A stretch of DNA of 64,000 bases from a phage: sequence record PZ452581.1; one strand, written 5' to 3'. Below, piece after piece: positions 22,294 to 62,991 of this stretch. Position 1 is the first letter of the stretch. Each line of letters starts with the position of its first letter. A program made the translations under genes and the position numbers. The notes under the pieces were generated by a model that was not told where the DNA came from, ran no database searches, and saw only the letters and a program-made list of their open reading frames with translations.

Positions 22294-25200
22294 ATGGCCG
22301 AGATTAAAAGAAAGTTCAGAGCAGAAGATGGTCTGGACGCAGGTGGTGATAAAATAATCAACGTAGCTTTAGCTGATCGTACCGTAGGAACTGACGGTGT
22401 TAACGTTGATTACCTAATTCAAGAAAACACAGTTCAACAATACGATCCAACTCGTGGATATTTAAAAGATTTTGTAATCATTTATGATAACCGCTTTTGG
22501 GCTGCTATAAATGATATTCCAAAACCGGCAGGAGCTTTTAATAGCGGGCGCTGGAGAGCATTACGTACTGATGCTAACTGGATTACAGTTTCATCTGGTT
22601 CATATCAATTAAAATCCGGTGAAGCTATTTCGGTTAACACTGCAGCTGGTAATGATATTACATTTACTTTACCATCTACTCCAATTGACGGTGATACTAT
22701 CGTTCTCCAAGACATTGGAGGAAAACCTGGAGTTAACCAAGTTTTAATTGTAGCTCCAGTACAAAGTATTGTAAACTTTAGAGGCGAACAAGTACGTTCA
22801 GTACTAATGACTCATCCAAAGTCACAGTTAGTTTTAATTTTTAGTAATCGTCTGTGGCAAATGTATGTAGCTGATTATAGTAGAGAAGCTGTAGTTGTAA
22901 CACCAGCGAATACTTATCAAGCGCAATCCAACGATTTTATCGTACGTAGATTTACTTCTGCTGCACCGATAAATATTAAACTTCCGAGATTTGCTAATCA
23001 TGGCGATATTATTAATTTCGTCGATTTGGATAAATTAAATCCGCTTTATCATACAATTGTTACAACATATGATGAAACCACTTCAGTACAAGAAGTTGGA
23101 ACTCATTCTATTGAAGGCCGTACATCTATTGACGGTTTCTTGATGTATGACGATAATGAGAAATTATGGAGATTATTTGACGGGGACAGTAAAGCACGTT
23201 TACGTATCATAACAACTAATTCAAACATTCGTCCAAATGAAGAAGTTATGGTATTTGGTGCGAATAATGGAACAACTCAAACAATTGAGCTTCAGCTTCC
23301 AACTAATATTTCTGTTGGTGATACTGTTAAAATTTCCATGAATTACATGAGAAAAGGACAAACAGTTAAAATCAAAGCTGCCGGTGAAGATAAAATTGCT
23401 TCTTCAGTTCAATTGCTGCAATTCCCAAAACGTTCAGAATATCCGCCTGAAACTAAATGGGTAACTGTTCAAGAATTAGTTTTTAACGGTGAAACTAATT
23501 ATGTTCCAGTTTTACAGCTTGCTTATATAGAAGATTCTGATGGAAAATACTGGGTTGTACAACAAAACGTTCCAACCGTAGAAAGAGTTGATTCTTTAAA
23601 TGATTCTACTAGAGCAAGATTAGGCGTAATTGCTTTAGCTACACAGGCTCAAGCTAACGTCGATTTAGAAAATTCTCCACAAAAAGAATTAGCAATTACT
23701 CCAGAAACATTAGCTAACCGTACTGCTACAGAAACTCGTAGAGGTATCGCAAGAATAGCAACTACTGCTCAAGTGAATCAGAACACCACATTCTCTTTTG
23801 CTGATGATATTATCATCACTCCTAAAAAGCTGAATGAAAGAACTGCTACAGAAACTCGCAGAGGTGTTGCAGAAATTGCTACTCAGCAAGAAACAAACGC
23901 AGGAACAGATGATACAACCATCATTACTCCTAAAAAGCTTCAAGCTCGTCAAGGTTCTGAATCATTATCTGGTATTGTAACTTTTGTATCTACTGCAGGT
24001 GCTACTCCAGCTTCTAGCCGTGAATTAAATGGTACGAATGTTTATAATAAAAACACTAATAATTTAGTTGTTTCGCCAAAAGCTTTGGATCAATATAAAG
24101 CTACTCCAACGCAACAAGGTGCAGTAATTTTAGCAGTTGAAAGTGAAGTAATTGCTGGACAAAGCCAAGAAGGATGGGCAAATGCGGTTGTAACGCCAGA
24201 AACGTTACATAAAAAGACATCAACTGATGCAAGAATTGGTTTAATTGAAATTGCTACGCAAAGTGAAGTTAATACAGGAACTGATTATACTCGTGCAGTC
24301 ACTCCTAAAACTTTAAATGACCGTAGAGCAACTGAAAGTTTAAGTGGTATAGCTGAAATTGCTACACAAGTTGAATTCGACGCAGGCGTCGACGATACTC
24401 GTATCTCTACACCATTAAAAATTAAAACCAGATTTAATAGTACTGATCGTACTTCTGTTGTTGCTCTATCTGGATTAGTTGAATCAGGAACTCTCTGGGA
24501 CCATTATACCCTTAATATTCTTGAAGCAAATGAGACGCAACGTGGTACACTTCGTGTAGCTACACAAGTTGAAGCTGCTGCAGGAACATTAGATAATGTT
24601 TTAATAACTCCTAAAAAGCTTTTAGGTACTAAATCTACCGAATCGCAAGAAGGTGTTATTAAAGTTGCAACTCAAGCTGAAACCGTAGCTGGAACATCAG
24701 CAAATACTGCTGTATCTCCAAAAAATTTAAAATGGATTGTGCAGAGTGAACCTACTTGGGCAGCTACTACTGCAATAAGAGGTTTTGTTAAAACTTCATC
24801 TGGTTCAATTACATTCGTTGGTAATGATACAGTCGGTTCTACCCAAGATTTAGAACTGTATGAGAAAAATAGCTATGCGGTATCACCATATGAATTAAAC
24901 CGTGTATTAGCAAATTATTTGCCATTAAAAGCAAAAGCTGCTGATACAAATTTATTGGATGGTCTAGATTCATCTCAGTTCATTCGTAGGGATATCGCAC
25001 AGACGGTTAATGGTTCACTAACCTTAACCCAACAAACGAATCTGAGTGCCCCTCTTGTATCATCTAGTACTGCTACGTTTGGTGGATCAGTTTCGGCAAA
25101 TAGTACATTAACTATTTCTAATACTGGAACGGCAACTCGTCTGATTTTTGAGAAAGGACCTCAAACTGGAACTAACCCAGCACAGACGATGACTATCAGA

Positions 25201-26163
25201 GTTTGGGGAAATCAGTTTGGTGGCGGATCAGATACAACGCGTTCTACTGTATTTGAAGTTGGTGATGAAACATCTAATCACTTTTATTCTCAACGTAATA
25301 AAGATGGGAATATAACGTTTAGCATTAATGGTACTGTGATGCCAATAAATGTTAACGCTTCAGGCACGTTAAATGCGAATGGCGTTGCAACATTCGGTCG
25401 TTCAGTTACAGCCAACGGTGAATTCATTAGCAAGTCTGCAAATGCTTTCAGAGCAATTAGTGGTGATTACGGATTCTTTATTCGCAATGATGCTGCTAAT
25501 ACCTATTTTATGCTCACTGCATCCGGTGATCAGACTGGCGGATTTAATGGATTACGTCCTTTGTCTATTAATAATGCATCTGGCCAAGTAACGATTGGTG
25601 AAAGCTTAATAATTGCCAAAGGTGCTACTATAAATTCAGGTGGTTTGACTGTTAACTCGAGAATTCGTTCTCAGGGTACTAAAACATCTGATTTATACAC
25701 CCGTGCACCAACATCTGATACTGTAGGATTCTGGTCAATTGATATTAACGATTCAGCCACTTATAACCAGTTCCCGGGTTATTTTAAAATGGTTGAAAAA
25801 ACTAATGAAGTGACTGGGCTTCCATACTTAGAACGTGGCGAAGAAGTTAAATCTCCTGGTACACTGACTCAGTTTGGTAACACACTTGATTCGCTTTACC
25901 AAGATTGGATTACTTATCCAACGACGCCGGAAGCGCGTACCACTCGCTGGACACGTACATGGCAGAAAACCAAAAACTCTTGGTCAAGTTTTGTTCAGGT
26001 ATTTGACGGAGGTAACCCTCCTCAGCCGTCTGATATCGGTGCTTTACCGTCTGATAATGCTACAATGGGAAATCTTACTATTCGTGATTTCTTACGAATT
26101 GGTAATGTTCGCATTATTCCTGACCCAGCGAATAAAACGGTTAAATTTGAATGGGTTGAATAA
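22294..26163 (+). CDS. 34: long tail fibre proximal subunit
   Basis: 1289 aa; internal repeats of TETxRGxxxIATQxE...TPKKL type; GGAG Shine-Dalgarno. Confidence 0.95.
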   Translation: MAEIKRKFRAEDGLDAGGDKIINVALADRTVGTDGVNVDYLIQENTVQQYDPTRGYLKDFVIIYDNRFWAAINDIPKPAGAFNSGRWRALRTDANWITVSSGSYQLKSGEAISVNTAAGNDITFTLPSTPIDGDTIVLQDIGGKPGVNQVLIVAPVQSIVNFRGEQVRSVLMTHPKSQLVLIFSNRLWQMYVADYSREAVVVTPANTYQAQSNDFIVRRFTSAAPINIKLPRFANHGDIINFVDLDKLNPLYHTIVTTYDETTSVQEVGTHSIEGRTSIDGFLMYDDNEKLWRLFDGDSKARLRIITTNSNIRPNEEVMVFGANNGTTQTIELQLPTNISVGDTVKISMNYMRKGQTVKIKAAGEDKIASSVQLLQFPKRSEYPPETKWVTVQELVFNGETNYVPVLQLAYIEDSDGKYWVVQQNVPTVERVDSLNDSTRARLGVIALATQAQANVDLENSPQKELAITPETLANRTATETRRGIARIATTAQVNQNTTFSFADDIIITPKKLNERTATETRRGVAEIATQQETNAGTDDTTIITPKKLQARQGSESLSGIVTFVSTAGATPASSRELNGTNVYNKNTNNLVVSPKALDQYKATPTQQGAVILAVESEVIAGQSQEGWANAVVTPETLHKKTSTDARIGLIEIATQSEVNTGTDYTRAVTPKTLNDRRATESLSGIAEIATQVEFDAGVDDTRISTPLKIKTRFNSTDRTSVVALSGLVESGTLWDHYTLNILEANETQRGTLRVATQVEAAAGTLDNVLITPKKLLGTKSTESQEGVIKVATQAETVAGTSANTAVSPKNLKWIVQSEPTWAATTAIRGFVKTSSGSITFVGNDTVGSTQDLELYEKNSYAVSPYELNRVLANYLPLKAKAADTNLLDGLDSSQFIRRDIAQTVNGSLTLTQQTNLSAPLVSSSTATFGGSVSANSTLTISNTGTATRLIFEKGPQTGTNPAQTMTIRVWGNQFGGGSDTTRSTVFEVGDETSNHFYSQRNKDGNITFSINGTVMPINVNASGTLNANGVATFGRSVTANGEFISKSANAFRAISGDYGFFIRNDAANTYFMLTASGDQTGGFNGLRPLSINNASGQVTIGESLIIAKGATINSGGLTVNSRIRSQGTKTSDLYTRAPTSDTVGFWSIDINDSATYNQFPGYFKMVEKTNEVTGLPYLERGEEVKSPGTLTQFGNTLDSLYQDWITYPTTPEARTTRWTRTWQKTKNSWSSFVQVFDGGNPPQPSDIGALPSDNATMGNLTIRDFLRIGNVRIIPDPANKTVKFEWVE

Positions 26164-26171
26164 GAGGTATT

Positions 26172-27287
26172 ATGGAAAAATTTATGGCAGAGTTTGGACA
26201 AGGATATGTCCAAACGCCATTTTTATCGGAAAGTAATTCAGTAAGATACAAAATAAGTATAGCGGGTTCTTGCCCGCTTTCTACTGCAGGACCATATGTT
26301 AAATTTCAAGATAATCCCGTAGGAAGTCAAACATTTAGCGCAGGCCTTCATTTAAGAGTTTTTGACCCTTCCACCGGAGCATTAGTTGATAGTAAGTCAT
26401 ATGCTTTTTCGACTTCAAATGATACTACATCAGCTGCTTTTGTTAGTTTCATGAATTCTTTGGCAAATAATAGAATTGTTGCTATATTAACTAGTGGAAA
26501 GGTTAATTTTCCTCCTGAAGTAGTATCTTGGTTAAGAACCGCAGGAACGTCTGCTTTTCCATCTGATTCTATATTGTCAAGATTCGACGTATCATATGCT
26601 GCTTTTTATACTTCTTCTAAAAGAGCTATCGCATTAGAGCATGTTAAACTGAGTAATAGAAAAAGCACAGATGATTATCAAACTATTTTAGATGTTGTAT
26701 TTGACAGTTTAGAAGATGTAGGAGCTACCGGGTTTCCAAGAAGAACGTATGAAAGCGTTGAGCAATTCATGTCAGCGGTTGGTGGAACTAATAACGAAAT
26801 TGCGCGTCTACCAACTTCAGCTGCTATAAGTAAATTATCTGATTATAATTTAATTCCCGGAGATGTTCTTTATCTTAAAGCTCAGTTATATGCTGATGCT
26901 GATTTACTTGCGCTTGGAACTACAAATATATCTATCCGTTTTTATAATGCATCTAATGGATATATTTCCTCGACACAAGCTGAGTTTACTGGACAGGCTG
27001 GGTCTTGGGAATTAAAGGAAGACTATGTAGTTGTTCCAGAAAATGCAGTTGGATTTACGATATATGCACAAAGAACTGCTCAAGCGGGACAAGGCGGTAT
27101 GCGAAATTTAAGCTTTTCTGAAGTATCAAGAAATGGCGGAATTTCAAAACCCGCTGAATTTGGCGTCAACGGCATTCGTGTTAATTATATCTGTGAATCT
27201 GCTTCACCTCCGGATATAATGGTACTTCCTACACAAGCATCGTCTAAAACTGGTAAAGTGTTTGGGCAAGAATTTAGAGAAGTATAA
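26172..27287 (+). CDS. 35: long tail fibre hinge connector
   Basis: 371 aa, directly downstream of 34 with AAGAGG Shine-Dalgarno. Confidence 0.9.
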   Translation: MEKFMAEFGQGYVQTPFLSESNSVRYKISIAGSCPLSTAGPYVKFQDNPVGSQTFSAGLHLRVFDPSTGALVDSKSYAFSTSNDTTSAAFVSFMNSLANNRIVAILTSGKVNFPPEVVSWLRTAGTSAFPSDSILSRFDVSYAAFYTSSKRAIALEHVKLSNRKSTDDYQTILDVVFDSLEDVGATGFPRRTYESVEQFMSAVGGTNNEIARLPTSAAISKLSDYNLIPGDVLYLKAQLYADADLLALGTTNISIRFYNASNGYISSTQAEFTGQAGSWELKEDYVVVPENAVGFTIYAQRTAQAGQGGMRNLSFSEVSRNGGISKPAEFGVNGIRVNYICESASPPDIMVLPTQASSKTGKVFGQEFREV

Positions 27288-27292
27288 ATTGA

Positions 27293-27315
27293 GGGAGCCT
27301 TCGGGTTCCCTTTTT
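27293..27315 (+). terminator. intrinsic terminator after gene 35
   Basis: GGGAGCC-UUCG-GGUUCCC hairpin followed by TTTTT. Confidence 0.65.
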
Positions 27316-27318
27316 CTT

Positions 27319-27326
27319 TATAAATA
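27319..27326 (+). promoter_or_regulatory. late promoter TATAAATA for gene 36
   Basis: Exact TATAAATA about 24 nt before the ATG at 27350. Confidence 0.7.
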
Positions 27327-27349
27327 CTATTAAAATAAAGGGGCATACA

Positions 27350-28015
27350 ATGGCTGATTTAAAAGTAGGTTCAACAACTGGAGGCTCTGTCATTTGGCAT
27401 CAAGGAAATTTTCCATTGAATCCGGCCGGTGACGATGTACTCTATAAATCATTTAAAATATATTCAGAATATAACAAACCACAAGCTGCAGATAACGATT
27501 TCGTTTCTAAAGCTAACGGTGGTACTTATGCATCAAAGGTAACATTTAATGCTGGTGTTCAAGTACCATATGCTATAAACAATACAAACCAAAGTGGTAT
27601 TTATCCTGGTAATGGAGATGCAGCTACTTTTGTTACAGCAAATATTGATATTGTTTCATGGTATGGCGTAGGATTTAAATCATCACAAGGATCTGCCGGT
27701 AGAACTGTAGTAATTAATACACGCAATGGTGATATTAGCACAAAAGGTGTTGTGTCGGCAGCTGGTCAAGTAAGAAGTGATGCGGCTGCTCCTATAGCAG
27801 CGAATGACCTTACTAGAAAGGACTATGTTGATGGAGCAATAAATACTGTTACAGCAAATGCAAACTCTAGAGTGTTACGATCTGGTGACACTATGACGGG
27901 AAACTTAACCGCACCAAACTTTTTCTCGCAGAATCCTGCATCTCAACCTTCACATGTTCCACGATTTGACCAAATCGTAATTAAGGATTCTGTTCAAGAT
28001 TTCGGCTATTATTAA
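27350..28015 (+). CDS. 36: long tail fibre distal connector
   Basis: 221 aa. Confidence 0.9.
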   Translation: MADLKVGSTTGGSVIWHQGNFPLNPAGDDVLYKSFKIYSEYNKPQAADNDFVSKANGGTYASKVTFNAGVQVPYAINNTNQSGIYPGNGDAATFVTANIDIVSWYGVGFKSSQGSAGRTVVINTRNGDISTKGVVSAAGQVRSDAAAPIAANDLTRKDYVDGAINTVTANANSRVLRSGDTMTGNLTAPNFFSQNPASQPSHVPRFDQIVIKDSVQDFGYY

Positions 28016-28023
28016 GAGGACTT

Positions 28024-31000
28024 ATGGCTACTTTAAAACAAATACAATTTAAAAGAAGCAAAACCGCAGGTGCACGTCCTGCTGCTTCAGTATTAGCCGA
28101 AGGTGAATTGGCTATAAATTTAAAAGATAGAACAATTTTTACTAAAGACGATTCAGGAAATATCATTGACTTAAGCATTTCCGCTGGCGGTAATATCAGT
28201 GGTAATATCACTCAAACTGGTGATTATACACAGACTGGAAAATTTAATTTAATTGGCCCGCAGATTATAGCAAGTGGTGGATATATTGAGTTTAATTATC
28301 GTACTACTGGAAGTGGGGCTTGGTCCGGTCAACACACTGCAAAGGCTCCAATTTTTGTAGATTTAAGCTCAGCTACTTCCACATCTGAATATAATCCTAT
28401 AATTAAACAGCGCTTTAAAGATGGAACTTTTTCATTAGGTACTTTAGTTTCTGAAGGTTCGTTGAAGATTCATTATATTGATGAAACTGGTCAATCTAAA
28501 TATTGGACATTTGCGCGCTCAGGTAATTTTCAAGTTGATTCTGGTAATTTATTAGTATCTGGTGGGTATTTAGTCGCTCAGAGTAATATTGAAACAAGAA
28601 CAGGTTCTTTGATTGGTCCATCTGTTGTAACTAAAAATATTTCATTTGATACGAAAGCGTTTGGACAATACGATTCGCAGTCATTAGTTCAATATGTTTA
28701 TCCTGGAACTGGTGAAACAAACGGAATTAATTACCTTCGTAAATTCCGTGCAAAATCTGGTGGTACGATTTATCATGAATTAGCTTCTGCACAAACCGGA
28801 AAAAGTGATGAACTGTCTTGGTGGACCGGTAATACAGCCGTTAATAAACAAATGGGCCTTCGCAATGATGGGTCTTTAGTGTTGCGACGCTCACTCGCAA
28901 TTGGTACAATTACAACAGATGAAAACATTAATAATTACGGCTCCACTGGAGCAATGGGTGAATGCTATATAGTCATTGGAGATGCCGCAACTGGTGTATC
29001 ATATAAAAGATCTGGTGTATATGATTTAGTTGCTAATGGTCTTTCTATCGCGTCTATTACTCCTGACAGTTTCCGTAGTACTCGTAAAGCATTATTTGGA
29101 CGTTCAGAAGACCAAGGCGGAACATGGAATATGCCTGGAACGAACGCCGCGTTTTTATCGGTTCAAACACAGGCTGATGAAAACACTGCTGGAGACGGTC
29201 AAACCCATATTGGATATAATTCTGGCGGAAAAATGAACCACTATTTCCGTGGTAAAGGAAAAACTAATATTAATACTCAAGAAGGCATGGAAGTTAACCC
29301 GGGTATTTTGAAATTGGTAACTGGCTCTAATAATGTAATGTTTTATGCTGATGGCGGTATTACATCTGTTAAGCAGCTTTCAATATATAACGGCATATAT
29401 TTAGCAGCTAATAATTCTACTGCTGGGCTAACATTCGCTCCAACTACTACAATTGATGGCACTAAGCAAATTTTGTGGGAAGGCGGTACTCGTGCTGGTC
29501 AGAATAAAAGCTATGTAACTGTTAAAGCATGGGGTAATTCATTTAACGCATCTGGCGATCGTAATCGTGAAACGGTTTTTGAAGTAGCTGATGGACAAGG
29601 ATATTATTTTTATTCACAGCGTGTGGCTCCAAGTGGCTCTGAAACTACTGGGCCTGTTGTAACCCAGTTCAATGGACAAGTTAATGCTAGAGGAAGTATT
29701 ATTACTGACGGAAGTTTTAAAGTTAATGGATTAAGCACTTTAGTCGGTAATGTTACCATGTCTAATGGTTTGTTTGTCCAAGGTGGTTCTTCTATTACTG
29801 GACAGGTAAAAATTGGTGGAACGGCTGATGCATTAAGAATTTGGAATGCTGAATACGGTGCTATTTTCCGTCGCTCAGAAAGTAATCTTTATATTATACC
29901 GACTCCTAAAGATGCTGGAGAATCGGGCGGTATAAGTAATCTTAGACCATTGATAATAGAACTGAACACTGGCACAGTTAAAATGTCGCATGATGTTCAT
30001 TTAGGAGATTCTGGATCTGGTACAGGACTTTTACAAGTAAGTAATAGTCTTAAAACTATTAAAATGATATGTCCAGTAACTATTAATGAACGCAATGCAG
30101 CGCTTACCCTGGATTCTCCTTCATCTTCTTCTGCTAATTATTTACAGGGTTCTAAAGCTGGAACTAGATCATGGTACGTTGGTCTTGGCGGCGCTGGAAA
30201 TGATTTATCTCTTTATAGCCAATCTTATGGACATGGTCTTGTTATAAGCGATAATTTCGTGTCAATCAGTAAACCTCTTAAAGTTGGAAATGCCCAACTA
30301 GGAACTGATGGTAATATTACTAGCGGTTCAGGAAACTTTGCCAACTTGAACACCACACTAAACCGTAAAGTTAATTCTGGATTTATTACTTATGGAGCAA
30401 CCGCTGGATGGTATAAGTTTGCAACAGTAACAATGCCACAATCCACTTCGACGGTCTTCTTTAAAATAGTTGGAGGTTCTGGATTTAATAGCGGATTATT
30501 CACACAATGTAATATTGCTGAAATTGTTTTACGTACTAGTAATGAAAGACCTGCTGACTTAAATGCTGCATTATACACAAGAACAATTGGAGCTGCATTT
30601 AAAGATATTGCAGTTAATAACGTCTCTGGAGATACATATGACATTTATGTTTCTGCTGGAACATATTGTAATCAATTAGCTTGTGAGTGGTCATGTACCG
30701 AAAATGCTACTGTTAGTGTTATTGGTATTAACTCATCTACACAATCACCTGTAGATGCTCTTCCAGATACAGCAGTTAATGGTCAAGTTGCTAATGTTCT
30801 TAATAACTTGGTTGATCGCGGTAAAGTTAAGCGTTATGAAGCCGATTCTGAACTAGCTATTAATAGCCCAACCGGTATTCGTATCAGAAGCAATGCCGAT
30901 AAAACTGGTTCTGTGGCTACAATGTTACGAAATGATGGCGGTAGTTTTTATATTCTGTTTACAGATAAAAATGCCACCGATGGCGCAGCAACTGTTAATG

Positions 31001-31806
31001 GTGATTGGAATAGTAAACGTCCTTTCGCAATTAACTTAACAACCGGCGAAGTGATGATGAATAACGGCATAGCTGTTCGCAGCGCTGCTTTATTCTATAA
31101 TAGCATAAACGTCAAAGATAATGGTTCTATTAACTTTGATAAATCAGGCGCTAACCCGAGAAATATGAGAATATTTCATGCTGGCGATGCTTCTCGCGGT
31201 AACCGTATTGAAATTGCCGATGAAACTAACTATATTGCTTACTTTGAAAAAACACCAGGTGGAGCTAATCGCTTTGTAGTAAATAATGCTACTGTAGCTG
31301 GTGTTAATCAAATGAATTCATTTGGTATTAACATCAATAACGCACTTGGTGGAAATAGTATAGCGTTTGGCGATAATGACACTGGTATTAAGCAAAATGG
31401 CGATGGATTATTAGACATATATGCGAATGGTGTACAGACTTTCCGTTTCCAAAACGGTGATTTGTACTCATACAAAAATATAAATGCTCCAAACGTTTAT
31501 ATTCGTTCTGATATTCGTTTAAAATCTAACTTCAAACCTATCGAAAATGCACTTGATAAAGTTGAAAAACTTAACGGTGTCATTTACGATAAAGCTGAAT
31601 ATATCGGTGGAGAGGCAATTGAAACTGAAGCGGGTATTGTGGCTCAAACGTTACAAGACGTTTTACCAGAAGCTGTCCGTGAAACAGAAGACAGTAAGGG
31701 TAATAAAATACTCACTGTTTCTTCTCAAGCCCAGATTGCTCTTCTGGTTGAAGCTGTGAAAACACTTTCTGCTCGTGTAAAAGAACTTGAATCTAAACTT
31801 ATGTAA
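28024..31806 (+). CDS. 37: long tail fibre distal subunit with C-terminal intramolecular-chaperone-like domain
   Basis: 1260 aa; C-terminus ...IRSDIRLKSNFKPIENALDKVEKLNGVIYD... resembles self-cleaving chaperone domains of fibre/endosialidase proteins. Confidence 0.9.
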   Translation: MATLKQIQFKRSKTAGARPAASVLAEGELAINLKDRTIFTKDDSGNIIDLSISAGGNISGNITQTGDYTQTGKFNLIGPQIIASGGYIEFNYRTTGSGAWSGQHTAKAPIFVDLSSATSTSEYNPIIKQRFKDGTFSLGTLVSEGSLKIHYIDETGQSKYWTFARSGNFQVDSGNLLVSGGYLVAQSNIETRTGSLIGPSVVTKNISFDTKAFGQYDSQSLVQYVYPGTGETNGINYLRKFRAKSGGTIYHELASAQTGKSDELSWWTGNTAVNKQMGLRNDGSLVLRRSLAIGTITTDENINNYGSTGAMGECYIVIGDAATGVSYKRSGVYDLVANGLSIASITPDSFRSTRKALFGRSEDQGGTWNMPGTNAAFLSVQTQADENTAGDGQTHIGYNSGGKMNHYFRGKGKTNINTQEGMEVNPGILKLVTGSNNVMFYADGGITSVKQLSIYNGIYLAANNSTAGLTFAPTTTIDGTKQILWEGGTRAGQNKSYVTVKAWGNSFNASGDRNRETVFEVADGQGYYFYSQRVAPSGSETTGPVVTQFNGQVNARGSIITDGSFKVNGLSTLVGNVTMSNGLFVQGGSSITGQVKIGGTADALRIWNAEYGAIFRRSESNLYIIPTPKDAGESGGISNLRPLIIELNTGTVKMSHDVHLGDSGSGTGLLQVSNSLKTIKMICPVTINERNAALTLDSPSSSSANYLQGSKAGTRSWYVGLGGAGNDLSLYSQSYGHGLVISDNFVSISKPLKVGNAQLGTDGNITSGSGNFANLNTTLNRKVNSGFITYGATAGWYKFATVTMPQSTSTVFFKIVGGSGFNSGLFTQCNIAEIVLRTSNERPADLNAALYTRTIGAAFKDIAVNNVSGDTYDIYVSAGTYCNQLACEWSCTENATVSVIGINSSTQSPVDALPDTAVNGQVANVLNNLVDRGKVKRYEADSELAINSPTGIRIRSNADKTGSVATMLRNDGGSFYILFTDKNATDGAATVNGDWNSKRPFAINLTTGEVMMNNGIAVRSAALFYNSINVKDNGSINFDKSGANPRNMRIFHAGDASRGNRIEIADETNYIAYFEKTPGGANRFVVNNATVAGVNQMNSFGININNALGGNSIAFGDNDTGIKQNGDGLLDIYANGVQTFRFQNGDLYSYKNINAPNVYIRSDIRLKSNFKPIENALDKVEKLNGVIYDKAEYIGGEAIETEAGIVAQTLQDVLPEAVRETEDSKGNKILTVSSQAQIALLVEAVKTLSARVKELESKLM

Positions 31807-31807
31807 A

Positions 31808-31835
31808 AGAGGGCTTCGGCCCTCTAAGGATTTTT
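31808..31835 (+). terminator. UUCG-loop hairpin with short U-run between genes 37 and 38 (weak terminator or attenuator)
   Basis: AGAGGGC-UUCG-GCCCUCU then AAGGAUUUUU immediately before the gene 38 ATG. Confidence 0.5.
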
Positions 31836-31836
31836 A

Positions 31837-32622
31837 ATGGCAATTGTAGGTGTTCCTGGCTGGATTGGTGAATCTGCCGTGAATGAAACTGGACAACGCT
31901 GGATGGATGCTGCAATGAAAGCAGTTCGTGTTTCAGTTCCCGGTTGGATGAGCTCAATGGCCGGACAATCTAAAGAAGTATATTATAGCATTGGTGCTAG
32001 TAATTCTTATAATAAAGATACATTAATAAACTGGATAAAAGCACAAGGGTCCACGCCTGTTGTTATTACTATTACAGGAAATATTGTTTCTCAATCTACT
32101 GGTGTTCCATGCTTAGATTTTCCTAGCTCATTAACTAATGCATACGTGACACTTAATATCAATTCAGGCGTGCATGTTTGGGGCCGTGGCGGGAATGGCG
32201 GAAATAACTCTGCCGGTGGAGCAGGAGGAACTGCAATAAATAATGGAATTGGAACTAGATTGCGTATTAACAACAATGGTGTTATCGCAGGAGGCGGTGG
32301 CGGCGGTGGAGGTGGATATTATTCTCCTTTTTCACAAATGAAATTGACTTTTGGCGGTGGCGGCGGTCGTCCATTTGGTGCTGCTGGCGGGTCTGCTAAT
32401 ATGGAACAGGGCGCTACTGCTGGTACTATTTCTGCACCTGGTAAAGGGTCTGTCAATGGTATCTATAATGGCGGGAATGGCGGTGATGCTGGTGCCGCAG
32501 GTGGTAAATGTAATATTCGTGGGCAAGGATCAGAATATAACGGCGGTGCGGCTGGTAAAGCTGTTACTGGTAATGCTCCAACTTGGACTAAAGTTGGTAC
32601 AATATACGGTTCAAGAGTATAA
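31837..32622 (+). CDS. 38: tail fibre adhesin, glycine-rich T2/T6-type gp38
   Basis: 261 aa; conserved N-terminus MAIVGVPGWIG and poly-Gly blocks (GGGGGGGGG) separating variable segments. Confidence 0.85.
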   Translation: MAIVGVPGWIGESAVNETGQRWMDAAMKAVRVSVPGWMSSMAGQSKEVYYSIGASNSYNKDTLINWIKAQGSTPVVITITGNIVSQSTGVPCLDFPSSLTNAYVTLNINSGVHVWGRGGNGGNNSAGGAGGTAINNGIGTRLRINNNGVIAGGGGGGGGGYYSPFSQMKLTFGGGGGRPFGAAGGSANMEQGATAGTISAPGKGSVNGIYNGGNGGDAGAAGGKCNIRGQGSEYNGGAAGKAVTGNAPTWTKVGTIYGSRV

Positions 32623-32653
32623 TTTTGAATAAATATCCTTAAAAGGAGGGTCT

Positions 32654-33310
32654 ATGGCAGCACCTAGAATATCATTTTCGCCCTCTGATATTCTATTTGG
32701 TGTTCTAGATCGCTTGTTCAAAGATAATGCTACCGGGAAGGTTCTTGCTTCCCGAGTAGCTGTCGTAATTCTTTTGTTTATGATGGCGATTGTTTGGTAT
32801 AGGGGAGATAGTTTCTTTGAGTACTATAAGCAATCAAAGTATGAAACATACAGTGAAATTATTGAAAAGGAAAGAAATGCACGCTTTGAATCTGTCGCCC
32901 TGGAACAACTCCAGATAGTTCATATATCATCTGAGGCAGACTTTAGTGCGGTGTATTCTTTCCGCCCTAAAAACTTAAACTATTTTGTTGATATTATAGC
33001 ATACGAAGGAAGATTACCTTCAACAATAACTGAAAAATCACTTGGAGGATATCCTGTTGATAAAACTATGGATGAATATACAGTTCATTTAAATGGACGT
33101 CATTATTATTCCAACTCAAAATTTGCTTTTTTACCAACTAAAAAGCCTACTCCCGAAATAAACTACATGTACAGTTGTCCATATTTTAATTTGGATAATA
33201 TCTATGCTGGAACGATAACCATGTACTGGTATAGAAATGATCATATAAGTAATGACCGCCTTGAATCAATATGTGCTCAGGCGGCCAGAATATTAGGAAG
33301 GGCTAAATAA
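32654..33310 (+). CDS. t: holin / lysis-inhibition sensor
   Basis: 218 aa; N-terminal TM segment; recognised as T4 T holin. Confidence 0.9.
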   Translation: MAAPRISFSPSDILFGVLDRLFKDNATGKVLASRVAVVILLFMMAIVWYRGDSFFEYYKQSKYETYSEIIEKERNARFESVALEQLQIVHISSEADFSAVYSFRPKNLNYFVDIIAYEGRLPSTITEKSLGGYPVDKTMDEYTVHLNGRHYYSNSKFAFLPTKKPTPEINYMYSCPYFNLDNIYAGTITMYWYRNDHISNDRLESICAQAARILGRAK

Positions 33311-33583
33311 TTATTTGTTTGTATACATCTCTAGATATCGATATACACTCTCAAAACCCTCATTGAATTCGTCGATGAGGGTTTTCTTATCTTCTTGAGT
33401 TAATTCAGAAACAATTTTACGGAATGAATTCTGATTTAATTTTCTACCTTCATGCGTTACTCCAATCTCATTCAGAAATGCAATAAAATTAGCACGATTC
33501 TCAACAATATCTTCTCTGGAAAATTTAATCAAAATAGACGCAACAGTAATAATTTCACGAACTGTATCAATATTTTTATTCAT
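33311..33583 (-). CDS. asiA: anti-sigma70 factor
   Basis: 90 aa MNKNIDTVREIITVASILIKF...; recognised as T4 AsiA; stop codon directly abuts t stop (convergent). Confidence 0.9.
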   Translation of the reverse strand: MNKNIDTVREIITVASILIKFSREDIVENRANFIAFLNEIGVTHEGRKLNQNSFRKIVSELTQEDKKTLIDEFNEGFESVYRYLEMYTNK

Positions 33584-33595
33584 TAACTATACCAC

Positions 33596-33748
33596 TCAAT
33601 TAGTTGACTTTGTTATAATATCATCAGACGCTTGATTTGTAAACCGGTCTGTGTTATTTTCTTCAAAAATTTTTTCTACGAATTCCTTGAACGACTCACG
33701 TTCCTGAGCTACATTATGCTCGATTACCTTTTCAAGATTATGACTCAT
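33596..33748 (-). CDS. small hypothetical protein (50 aa)
   Basis: ATG overlaps arn stop (ATGA); below ORF-track cutoff; contains the asiA promoter-like motif (33610-33644). Confidence 0.35.
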   Translation of the reverse strand: MSHNLEKVIEHNVAQERESFKEFVEKIFEENNTDRFTNQASDDIITKSTN

Positions 33749-37945: not shown

Positions 37946-38026
37946 TCACTGGCGTCCGAAGACGCCTTTAGTTTTAAGATTGTTACGATAAAACTGCATC
38001 ACATGTTCGTTGTGGAAATTACTCAT
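37946..38026 (-). CDS. stp: Stp peptide (activator of host PrrC anticodon nuclease)
   Basis: 26-aa [29 protein letters not shown] matches T4 Stp as recalled; start overlaps ndd stop. Confidence 0.75.
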
Positions 38027-40397: not shown

Positions 40398-40424
40398 CTT
40401 AAAACAAAAGGGCCGAAGCCCCTT
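40398..40424 (-). terminator. UUCG-loop hairpin plus U-rich tail
   Basis: GGGC-UUCG-GCCC core followed by UUUUGUUUU on minus transcript. Confidence 0.5.
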
Positions 40425-40622: not shown

Positions 40623-40654
40623 AATTTTCCTTAATATGATAAGGGCCGAAGCCC

Positions 40655-41593
40655 TTATTTAAATTGTTCAGTAACGTCTTCAACTACTTCGTATTGGCAG
40701 GTACGCATTTTAGCATCGTTGTAATCAATCGGAATTGATACTACATCACGTGGATGTACTTTAACTTTTACAACTCGGCTGGTTGAACTGCCAAAGTGAC
40801 GAATATAAGATTTAGAACACACATGCAGACCACGAGAACAAGTTTGTGTATCATCGTCATTCACACGAGTACGCGGCATTTTAACTACTTTACCAGGACT
40901 GTTATCAAAGGTGTTTGAGTGACAGTCAAAGTAGTTGTCACGAACTACTTTCCAAGCATAGAAGTAACCATCTTCTGTAATTTCAATATCGTTTGCTACC
41001 AAGAAATCAAAGAGTCGAGATACCGCTTTCTGGCTTGGGTTTTCCAGCAGATTTTCCAAGAACGGAAAATAAAATTCAAAGTTTTCACCTTTTTCCATCG
41101 AATCGAGAATACGATCAACTAAACCAGACCGTAATTCGATATTTTGATAGAACAAGCTTCCGCCTTCAATTCGAACATCGCCGGAAATATATTTTTCAAC
41201 AGCGCGACGAACATTAATTTTTTGTGCCGCTTCTTCCAACTTATCTGCTACAAGCAGATTAAGAATTTCCTGGAAGTTTGAATGAGTATTAGGAGTTGCG
41301 TTATAAGTTACACCGTCAACAGTAATTGAAATGAATTTTTTAGATGCATTCCAAATAATGTCAGATTTAGCAACTGGAGCAATAACTGCATCGCTATTAA
41401 CTTTAACTGTAATATCACCGCTAATAGTAACTTTAGAGCGTTTAGCTTCTTCAGCATTTTTCAAAACACGACGGATTGTGTCAACCGATACACCTTGCCA
41501 ATCAGCTAATTCCTGTTGGGTGTAATTACCACTTGAATACAATTTAACAATTTCAGCTTGTTCGTTTTTGGTCAGGCATTTAATATTGTACAT
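40655..41593 (-). CDS. rIIB: rIIB membrane-associated protein
   Basis: 312 aa, directly downstream of rIIA; length and synteny match T4. Confidence 0.85.
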   Translation of the reverse strand: MYNIKCLTKNEQAEIVKLYSSGNYTQQELADWQGVSVDTIRRVLKNAEEAKRSKVTISGDITVKVNSDAVIAPVAKSDIIWNASKKFISITVDGVTYNATPNTHSNFQEILNLLVADKLEEAAQKINVRRAVEKYISGDVRIEGGSLFYQNIELRSGLVDRILDSMEKGENFEFYFPFLENLLENPSQKAVSRLFDFLVANDIEITEDGYFYAWKVVRDNYFDCHSNTFDNSPGKVVKMPRTRVNDDDTQTCSRGLHVCSKSYIRHFGSSTSRVVKVKVHPRDVVSIPIDYNDAKMRTCQYEVVEDVTEQFK

Positions 41594-45871: not shown

Positions 45872-45937
45872 TTATCCTCGTTTGGTTTCGGGAATATTAT
45901 ACTCCGGTAATCATAAAGCTAAAGGCCCGAAGGCCTT

Positions 45938-46210
45938 TTATTTAAAACGGATAGTCGAATCCTTGAAGAATAGACCAGAACATACTGTTCCTTCTACTTT
46001 CTGCCCGGTAGGTCCAATAGCACGAAATCCAGTATGTTGGAAATCATTTTCAGAGCAACCGAACCAATTATATCCAGTGATTTCAATATTAGTAAAACCG
46101 CTTGAAGACAAAATTTTGGTTGCATTATCAGCATCAGTACATCCTACTAAAGATACTGCTAATACTAATGCTGCGATAGAACGATTAACATATTTCATAA
46201 TTTCACTCAA
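45938..46210 (-). CDS. putative lipoprotein
   Basis: 90 aa; signal peptide with lipobox SLVGCT. Confidence 0.55.
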   Translation of the reverse strand: MSEIMKYVNRSIAALVLAVSLVGCTDADNATKILSSSGFTNIEITGYNWFGCSENDFQHTGFRAIGPTGQKVEGTVCSGLFFKDSTIRFK

Positions 46211-56649: not shown

Positions 56650-56680
56650 AAAACGAAAAAAGGAACCCCGAAGGATTCCT
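56650..56680 (-). terminator. intrinsic terminator downstream of soc
   Basis: Hairpin AGGAACC-CCGAA-GGAUUCCU followed by U-run on minus transcript. Confidence 0.6.
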
Positions 56681-56686
56681 TAAATT

Positions 56687-62628: not shown

Positions 62629-62991
62629 TTAAAAGAATTTAAACTTTTTCTTTGACCTTTTATTAAATGCATCTTGTAGTTGCATTGTAATACATTTTTC
62701 TACATGAGGAGCTAACTCAGCTTTTCTTTCTTGGTCAAGAACAGCAAAGTCCATTACAACCTTTCCATCAACCCAATCCAGTTTAGTTACATACACAATG
62801 TGTGTAGAACCATCTTCTAGTTTAATGACAATCTCCTGGATAACATTTTCCATGGCAGATTTAATTATCTTAAGAGATTCATTAAAAAGACGTTCTTTTC
62901 TTTCTTCTTCCCCCTCCGAAGAGGGGGATTCATCGATAATTTCTAGATCTAAGTCTAAATCATCTTTATTCATTAAATTCTTCCATATCAC
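62629..62991 (-). CDS. 40: gp40 head-vertex assembly chaperone-like
   Basis: 120 aa between uvsX and 41. Confidence 0.7.
   Translation of the reverse strand: MIWKNLMNKDDLDLDLEIIDESPSSEGEEERKERLFNESLKIIKSAMENVIQEIVIKLEDGSTHIVYVTKLDWVDGKVVMDFAVLDQERKAELAPHVEKCITMQLQDAFNKRSKKKFKFF

Follow-up and report, generated by a model that had tools for sequence, protein, structure and literature searches.

We analyzed a 64,000-nucleotide stretch of phage DNA (sequence record PZ452581.1; the whole stretch is called the window below) at the locus that encodes the distal end of the long tail fiber. Two genes and a short hairpin between them lie at this locus. Gene 37 (28024..31806, + strand) codes for 1260 amino acids plus stop and specifies the distal subunit of the long tail fiber. 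Gene 38 (31837..32622, + strand) codes for 261 amino acids plus stop and specifies a monomeric adhesin of the tail-fiber tip. The gene order is 36-37-38-t, with gene 38 placed after the chaperone-ended gene 37 and before the holin gene t. We are highly confident that the locus is the standard T2/K3/T6-type distal long-tail-fiber module of a Tequatrovirus. The window is assigned to Tequatrovirus on nucleotide identity. Its closest phages over 24 kb were Escherichia phage teqhal (96.5%) and FriedrichMiescher (Bas39; 96.1%), and no identical record was found in the phage collection, where the 96.5% of teqhal was the best match over 24 kb. In the 4.6-kb region of genes 37 and 38, Bas39 and teqhal shared 96.8% nucleotide identity with the window.

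The product of gene 38 (gp38) matched the adhesin family pair PF05268 and PF21721 in Pfam, with E-values of 3.6e-72 for GP38 (243 bits, cut-off 25) and 7e-18 for Gp38_N (65 bits, cut-off 25). It also matched PHROG 2056, 'tail fiber protein; host specificity' (E = 2.6e-105), and the structure of S16 gp38 (6f45_D, E = 2.4e-49). These matches bear out an earlier reading of the window from its letters (the first-pass annotation), in which gp38 was taken as a T2/T6-type adhesin, and on these profiles gp38 belongs to that type and not to the T4-type chaperones. The records of teqhal, RB18, T6, SA21RB, and other phages nevertheless carry the product name 'distal long tail fiber assembly catalyst', under which gp38 would be an assembly chaperone and gp37 would carry the receptor tip as in T4. 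This name was carried over from T4, whose gp38 is unrelated in sequence according to the literature. In addition, the gp37 of the window ends in an S74 chaperone and not in the needle tip of T4. We rejected the assembly-catalyst reading on the adhesin profile, the match to the S16 adhesin 6F45, and the lack of sequence relationship to T4 gp38, and we give it next to no credence.

The attachment domain at the N-terminus of gp38 (31837..31962, +; residues 1-42) contains Trp9, Trp22, and Trp37 and is of the K3/T2 subtype, matching the gp37 tip. The three tryptophans were invariant in the window, Bas39, T6, T2, and Bas45, and Trp37 was replaced by tyrosine in the Krischvirus GEC-3S. Residues 1-42 were 96-98% identical to those of T2 and Bas45 and 67% identical to those of T6. 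In S16, three tryptophans of gp38 insert into the gp37 tip (PMC6851490). If the S16 structure is a valid guide, the exposed tip of the gp37 trimer would bind one gp38 molecule through this three-Trp domain.

Glycine accounted for 23% of gp38 and for 37% of its residues 115-240. Glycine runs were located at residues 118-131, 152-160, 173-177, 184-185, 212-223, and 236-237, and they use mixed GGN codons. The conserved polyglycine blocks that had been pointed out earlier are present as a run of nine (residues 152-160; 32290-32316, +; GGA GGC GGT GGC GGC GGT GGA GGT GGA) and a run of five (residues 173-177; 32353-32367, +). Two exact 15-nucleotide direct repeats were found in the glycine motifs. 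One, GGCGGTGGCGGCGGT, occurs at 32293 and again at 32353, on either side of the YYSPFSQMKLTF loop; the other, TGGCGGGAATGGCGG, occurs at 32187 and 32469. Across the alleles aligned, the glycine motifs were invariant and the segments between them varied.

We divided the specificity region of gp38 (32182..32556, +; residues 116-240) into glycine-rich motifs (GRMs) and hypervariable segments (HVSs) after the Trojet scheme (PMC3157838), with approximate boundaries. On the + strand, the order is GRM1 (32182-32202), HVS1 (32203-32289), GRM2 (the run of nine glycines; 32290-32316), HVS2 (32317-32352), GRM3 (32353-32379), HVS3 (32380-32469), GRM4 (32470-32505), HVS4 (32506-32541), and GRM5 (32542-32556). 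GRMs that bracket receptor-setting HVSs are the model of Trojet 2011 (PMC3157838) and Dunne 2018, and the proposal that the polyglycine blocks of the window bracket variable specificity loops agrees with it. The hypervariable loops would be presented by a polyglycine-II sandwich built from the GRMs.

A gp38 identical to that of the window at 260 of 261 residues was found in at least 16 phage records. We checked the alignment for Bas39 and JK38. Residues 29-261 were identical in both, including all variable loops, and the sole difference was K28R. The primary receptor of Bas39 is Tsx and its secondary receptor is the deep core of lipopolysaccharide (BASEL supplementary table), and JK38 was assigned to Tsx/Kdo by randomly barcoded transposon sequencing (RB-TnSeq; 2026 preprint). 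Because residues 29-261 are identical to those of the gp38 of these two Tsx-dependent phages, Tsx, the nucleoside channel of the outer membrane, is predicted as the primary receptor. The hypervariable loops of gp38 would bind Tsx, to judge from their identity with the loops of Bas39 and JK38. The gp38 of T6 shared 81% amino acid identity with that of the window in residues 115-240, and HVS2-4 were closely similar. T6 is the classical Tsx phage. According to PMC3157838, a single set of HVSs is common to almost all adhesins that bind Tsx, and the T6-like HVS2-4 of the window fit this statement.

Two points count against the Tsx prediction. Lys28 is the only residue that separates the gp38 of the window from the common Tsx-type allele, although this change is conservative and lies in the attachment domain. 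Furthermore, a single substitution in an HVS can switch the receptor, as Q206L did in RB68 from OmpF to OmpW (2026 preprint). PST likewise differs from T6 by few residues yet recognizes more receptors (PMC3157838). Since single substitutions can switch the receptor, the Tsx prediction can be relied on only for loops that are identical, as here; similarity would not suffice. Codon 28 (31918-31920) encodes Lys in the window and in RB18, and Arg in Bas39, JK38, T2, and Bas45.

A receptor other than Tsx, or one used besides it, may also be considered, such as OmpA, which adhesins of the PST or K3 type use. Residues 1-105 were 97% identical to the gp38 of the OmpA-dependent Bas45, HVS1 was somewhat nearer to Bas45 than to T6, and more than one receptor is used by PST-type adhesins, whose loops resemble those of T6. 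We regard this alternative as very unlikely, because the identity over residues 29-261 is to two phages whose dependence on Tsx was found in genetic assays independent of each other. Moreover, an engineered gp38 swap 'from HVS2 onwards' sufficed to change the receptor from Tsx to OmpA (2026 preprint), and HVS2-4 of the window are of the T6/Tsx type. Tsx is thus retained as the predicted receptor. The first-pass annotation had stated that this locus predicts host range, and this holds for the primary receptor, which can be called as Tsx, but not for the whole host range. It had also proposed a comparison of the variable loops with characterized adhesins. The loops proved identical to those of Bas39 and JK38, an outcome that it had itself named as counting against its reading, and they carry no new specificity.

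The last 99 residues of gp37 (residues 1162-1260; 31507..31803, +) correspond to a peptidase S74 intramolecular chaperone. Pfam Peptidase_S74 (PF13884, 'chaperone of endosialidase') matched residues 1162-1219 over its full model (1-58/58) with an E-value of 3.5e-15 (56.5 bits, cut-off 22). The last 160 residues of gp37 aligned to S16 gp37 (PDB 6f45_A, E = 3.7e-13), and the same end matched the autoprocessing domain of MYRF (7dc3) more weakly. Membership in S74 was thus assigned from sequence profiles, which identify the C-terminus as a true intramolecular chaperone of this family. Residues 1100-1260 were also modeled with AlphaFold2 from the single sequence. Helices were seen, but the mean predicted local distance difference test score (pLDDT) was only 51, and the model was too poor to confirm the fold or to serve for a fold search.

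In the alignment with S16, 'irSDirlKs' of the window was placed on 'vsSDrriKk', which puts Ser1162 and Lys1167 on the S16 site. The geometry is that of the S74 catalytic pair, with Ser1162 at the start of the domain and Lys1167 five residues further. The reported cleavage sites are DLNVS^SDRRIKK in S16 and DVYIR^SDGRLKI in phage fPS (PMC7917993). The sequence NVYIR^SDIRLK of the window resembles both, and therefore autocleavage is predicted between R1161 and S1162, whose codon is at 31507-31509. This cut would free the 99-residue chaperone. Ser1162 is the predicted nucleophile and Lys1167 the predicted base. The last 120 residues (1141-1260), which include the whole domain, showed 100% identity with T2 and K3. 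For T2 and T6, cleavage of gp37 at its C-terminus is stated in a passage of PMC3157838 that cites Drexler 1986. The C-terminal S74 chaperone would nucleate the folding of the gp37 trimer and then remove itself by autoproteolysis through Ser1162 and Lys1167, as suggested by homology and by T2, whose identical domain is reported to be processed. The resemblance of the gp37 end to the self-cleaving chaperones of fiber proteins, noticed in the first reading, was confirmed at the level of the domain by the Pfam match and the alignment of Ser and Lys to the S16 site.

The 30-nucleotide gap between genes 37 and 38 (31807-31836) reads A-AGAGGGC-UUCG-GCCCUCU-AAGGA-UUUUUA and is followed by AUG. The UUCG hairpin that had been reported between the two genes is present at 31808..31825 (+), with a 7-bp stem (AGAGGGC/GCCCUCU) and its loop at 31815-31818. 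The loop is closed by a C:G pair, and five of the seven stem pairs are G-C. The hairpin begins just past the stop codon of gene 37 and precedes the ribosome-binding site (RBS) of gene 38, a Shine-Dalgarno AAGGA (31826..31830, +) that abuts the 3′ arm and lies 6 nucleotides before the ATG. The corresponding site in a 1980s record of K3 (X04747) carries the annotation 'alternative pot. rRNA binding site (gene 38)'. The 27-nucleotide element folded at −13.4 kcal/mol and occupied 91% of the ensemble (z = −2.8), and 2 of 200 shuffled sequences folded as well. In a 61-nucleotide context its z-score was only −1.1, indicating that the hairpin is local.

We compared this junction with those of related phages. 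The hairpin sequence was identical in T2, K3, and Bas39, and the RBS was identical in T2 and K3. When the gp38 loci of other phages were folded, a hairpin was found at the same position in 20 of 22. Its stem and loop differed among relatives: T6 has AAGGGGC-UUU-GCCCCUU, and AUU, GUAAU, UUAAUU, or UUCG loops occur elsewhere. RNAalifold predicted six pairs in a short, gappy alignment of 13 distinct 37/38 junctions, and three of these pairs showed compensatory changes, which we take as no more than supporting evidence. Since the loops and stems vary while the position is kept, the feature conserved in this comparison is a stem-loop just ahead of the gene 38 RBS, not the UUCG loop itself. When positions 27000-33600 were compared with Rfam at a threshold of E ≤ 1, no match was obtained, and the hairpin falls in none of the curated RNA families.

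We favor the inference that the 37/38 hairpin is a stabilizing or insulating stem-loop. It is most likely a very stable RNA element that would lend stability to the gene 37 message on its 3′ side, it may also keep the adjoining RBS of gene 38 unpaired, and it would act at most as a leaky terminator. A stronger role in termination has been indicated by others. The K3 record annotates the identical stem-loop as 'stem-loop structure; pot. transcription terminator', and the GEC-3S record annotates a terminator hairpin just upstream of gene 38. Our own loose consensus scan also flagged the 37/38 hairpin as borderline terminator-like, which weakens the interpretation that we favor, and short U-runs follow the stem in related loci, such as GCCCCUUUGG in T6 and CCCCCUUUU in another locus (L011). 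If the hairpin were a working Rho-independent terminator of the 36-37 transcript, gene 38 would be expressed by rare read-through or from an unrecognized promoter. Termination of this kind would set gp38 low relative to gp37, with one gp38 per gp37 trimer. However, the run of five U starts 5 nucleotides past the stem, with AAGGA between, which is a non-canonical geometry.

The distribution of late promoters also bears on termination. Exact T4-type late promoter boxes (TATAAATA) in the tail-fiber operon were located only before gene 34 (22252) and upstream of gene 36 (27319..27326, +). Between gene 36 and gene 38, including the 3′ end of gene 37, no exact TATAAATA was found, only variants with one mismatch. 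Such one-mismatch boxes lie at 31479 within gene 37 and at 32628 ahead of t. A separate late promoter for gene 38 was considered and rejected, as no exact box was found for it. According to the literature, gp38 is needed for adsorption. With gp38 indispensable and gene 38 lacking an exact late promoter, transcription must read through the hairpin, and any termination there must be leaky. Genes 36, 37, and 38, perhaps with t, would form a single late transcript that likely starts at the 27319 box, as is expected from knowledge of T4. We consider a working terminator doubtful and keep the stabilizing or insulating stem-loop as the preferred role.

The hairpin is not special within this genome. 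CTTCGG occurred 30 times in the whole window, against 13.5 expected, and none of 100 shuffled sequences reached 30. Twelve copies sit in stems of at least 5 bp, several of them with an RBS-like sequence directly after, and the 37/38 hairpin is one of these about 12 C(UUCG)G hairpins. Further examples (-) are found at 1897-1916, 2814-2835, 37951-37966, 40407-40424, 40639-40658, 45921-45938, 56660-56681, and 62909-62928. The first UUCG tetraloops to be noticed were those of T4 mRNA (PMC4371310). A stronger C(UUCG)G hairpin is located just past the stop codon of gene 35, with a 9-bp stem (GAGGGAGCC/GGUUCCCUU), a folding energy of −15.1 kcal/mol, and a z-score of −4.2. There, the hairpin is followed directly by a U-run, then by the exact TATAAATA box at 27319-27326 and gene 36, and by sequence this gene 35/36 junction (27291-27326, +) looks like a canonical terminator plus late promoter.

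We examined the relationship of the gp38 allele to those of other phages along its length. Residues 1-105 were 97% identical to Bas45, 76% to T2, and 45% to T6, and this Bas45/T2-like character matches the K3/T2-type tip of gp37. Among the residues identical to T6, the same codon was used for 33% in residues 106-151 and for 66% in residues 161-261. HVS2-4 shared 80% nucleotide identity with T6, and DNA identity to T6 rose at about 32300, which is GRM2. In comparison with RB18, segments of 30 nucleotides were mostly 93-100% identical as far as about 32256, apart from two places, 32017-32076 and 32137-32196, where patches had 70-90%. Identity fell to 39-83% across 32257-32556 and was back to 100% at 32557, just past GRM5. 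Judged from these profiles, the similarity boundaries are at or beside conserved motifs, near GRM2 and GRM5, as the Tetart/Trojet shuffling model expects.

Experimental evidence on such shuffling is divided. In a set of 14 selected chimeras, the interval from GRM1 to GRM5 was free of crossovers (Trojet 2011, PMC3157838), and an engineered gp38 swap was resolved 'from HVS2 onwards' (2026 preprint). Third codon positions in the glycine motifs differ between alleles. The first-pass annotation had described the glycine-codon runs as recombination-prone, which is a plausible and published idea. It is only partly supported: the boundaries near GRM2 and GRM5 and the HVS2 swap agree with it, but the absence of GRM1-GRM5 crossovers among the 14 chimeras and the differing third positions do not. 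We tentatively suggest, as a real possibility, that the allele is a natural chimera produced by exchange at or near GRM2 and GRM5, in which T6/Tsx-type HVS2-4 were placed in a K3/T2-type backbone and the hairpin-plus-RBS junction tunes gp38 to a gp38:gp37 ratio of 1:3. If this is true, the chimera would supply evidence from natural sequences for motif-guided loop shuffling, whose experimental support is mixed.

A similar allele was seen outside the close relatives. Residues 48-261 of gp38 in the Krischvirus GEC-3S (HE978309, extracted locus L025 286-1065) were almost identical to those of the window, including the loops, and were joined to another attachment domain. The upstream neighbor of this gene is a small hypothetical-protein gene, not gene 37, and a hairpin plus RBS precede gp38. 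The 2026 preprint reports a distance of about 55 kb between gp38 and gp37 in Krischvirus.

The remainder of gp37 forms the shaft. The protein matched PHROG 1699, 'long tail fiber protein distal subunit', over its full length (E = 0). A segment like the C-terminal trimerization part of gp34 was detected at residues 508-645 (29545..29958, +; Pfam Gp34_trimer, E = 7e-10), and residues 467-658 matched the T4 gp34 structures PDB 4uxe and 5nxf (E about 1e-13). A gp37_trimer domain was located at residues 694-766 (30103..30321, +; Pfam PF20744, E = 5e-11), with matches to PDB 4a0t and 4a0u, 'tail fiber protein' (E about 5e-6). The protein is mosaic. Residues 1-60 were conserved across all relatives compared, residues 661-1080 were K3-like (90-98% per 60-residue block), and other blocks were nearer to T2. 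The JK38 record (MK962755; extracted locus L023 1478-5969) lists gene 37 in the form of two overlapping coding sequences, owing either to a frameshift or to an artefact of sequencing or annotation.

Upstream of gene 37, open reading frames on the + strand encode gp34 (22294-26163), the hinge protein gp35 (26172-27287), and gp36 (27350-28015; Pfam Phage_T4_gp36). Residues 58-126 of gp35 matched Pfam ILEI (interleukin-like epithelial-mesenchymal transition inducer, FAM3-PANDER-like) with an E-value of 1.1e-8 (35.9 bits, cut-off 27). Downstream of gene 38 lies the holin gene t (32654-33310, +; Pfam Phage_holin_T), which has a strong RBS (AAGGAGG). Between gene 38 and this RBS, AATAAATA at 32628-32635 (+) differs from the late box by one mismatch and might serve t as a weak late promoter.

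The components of the module, namely a chaperone-cleaved gp37, a polyglycine gp38, the modularity of GRMs and HVSs, and an intercistronic UUCG hairpin, are already known, and the locus holds no new biology. Near-identical alleles already have experimentally assigned receptors. The primary receptor (Tsx) can thus be called from sequence, which is useful for designing phage cocktails and for predicting the route to resistance (loss of tsx).

Finally, we compared the module with known systems. Bas39 (MZ501066), teqhal (MN895435), and Shigella phage JK38 (MK962755) have the same gene order as the window, and the products of Bas39 also have 1260 and 261 residues. The gp37 proteins of these three phages differ from that of the window at scattered positions, concentrated in residues 841-1140 (92-95% per 60-residue block). 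T2 (AP018813) and K3 (X04747) have the same chaperone domain (100%), whereas the gp37 shaft of the window is mosaic relative to both. The loops of T2 gp38 differ from those of the window (56% identity in residues 106-261), and T2 uses FadL/OmpF. The gp38 of T6 (MH550421) has 261 residues, as in the window, and its HVS2-4 are similar, with YYSPFPQMRLTF in T6 against YYSPFSQMKLTF in the window. In contrast, the attachment domain and β-helix part of T6 gp38 are of another subtype (45% identity in residues 1-105), and its gp37 C-terminus differs from that of the window (42% identity).

The S16 tip complex (PDB 6F45) has the architecture predicted for the window, namely a monomeric gp38 with three Trp prongs, a β-helix, and a polyglycine sandwich, and a trimeric gp37 tip whose S74 chaperone is autocleaved ahead of Ser-Asp. 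However, S16 gp38 is more distant (E = 2.4e-49), has other loops, and binds Salmonella OmpC, according to the title of Marti 2013. The 37/38 hairpin of the window resembles the C(UUCG)G hairpins of T4 mRNA (Tuerk et al. 1988, as described in PMC4371310) in its C:G closing pair, UUCG loop, intercistronic site, and unusual stability. Unlike the T4 set, phages related to the window keep the 37/38 hairpin with other loops (UUU, AUU, GUAAU, and UUAAUU).

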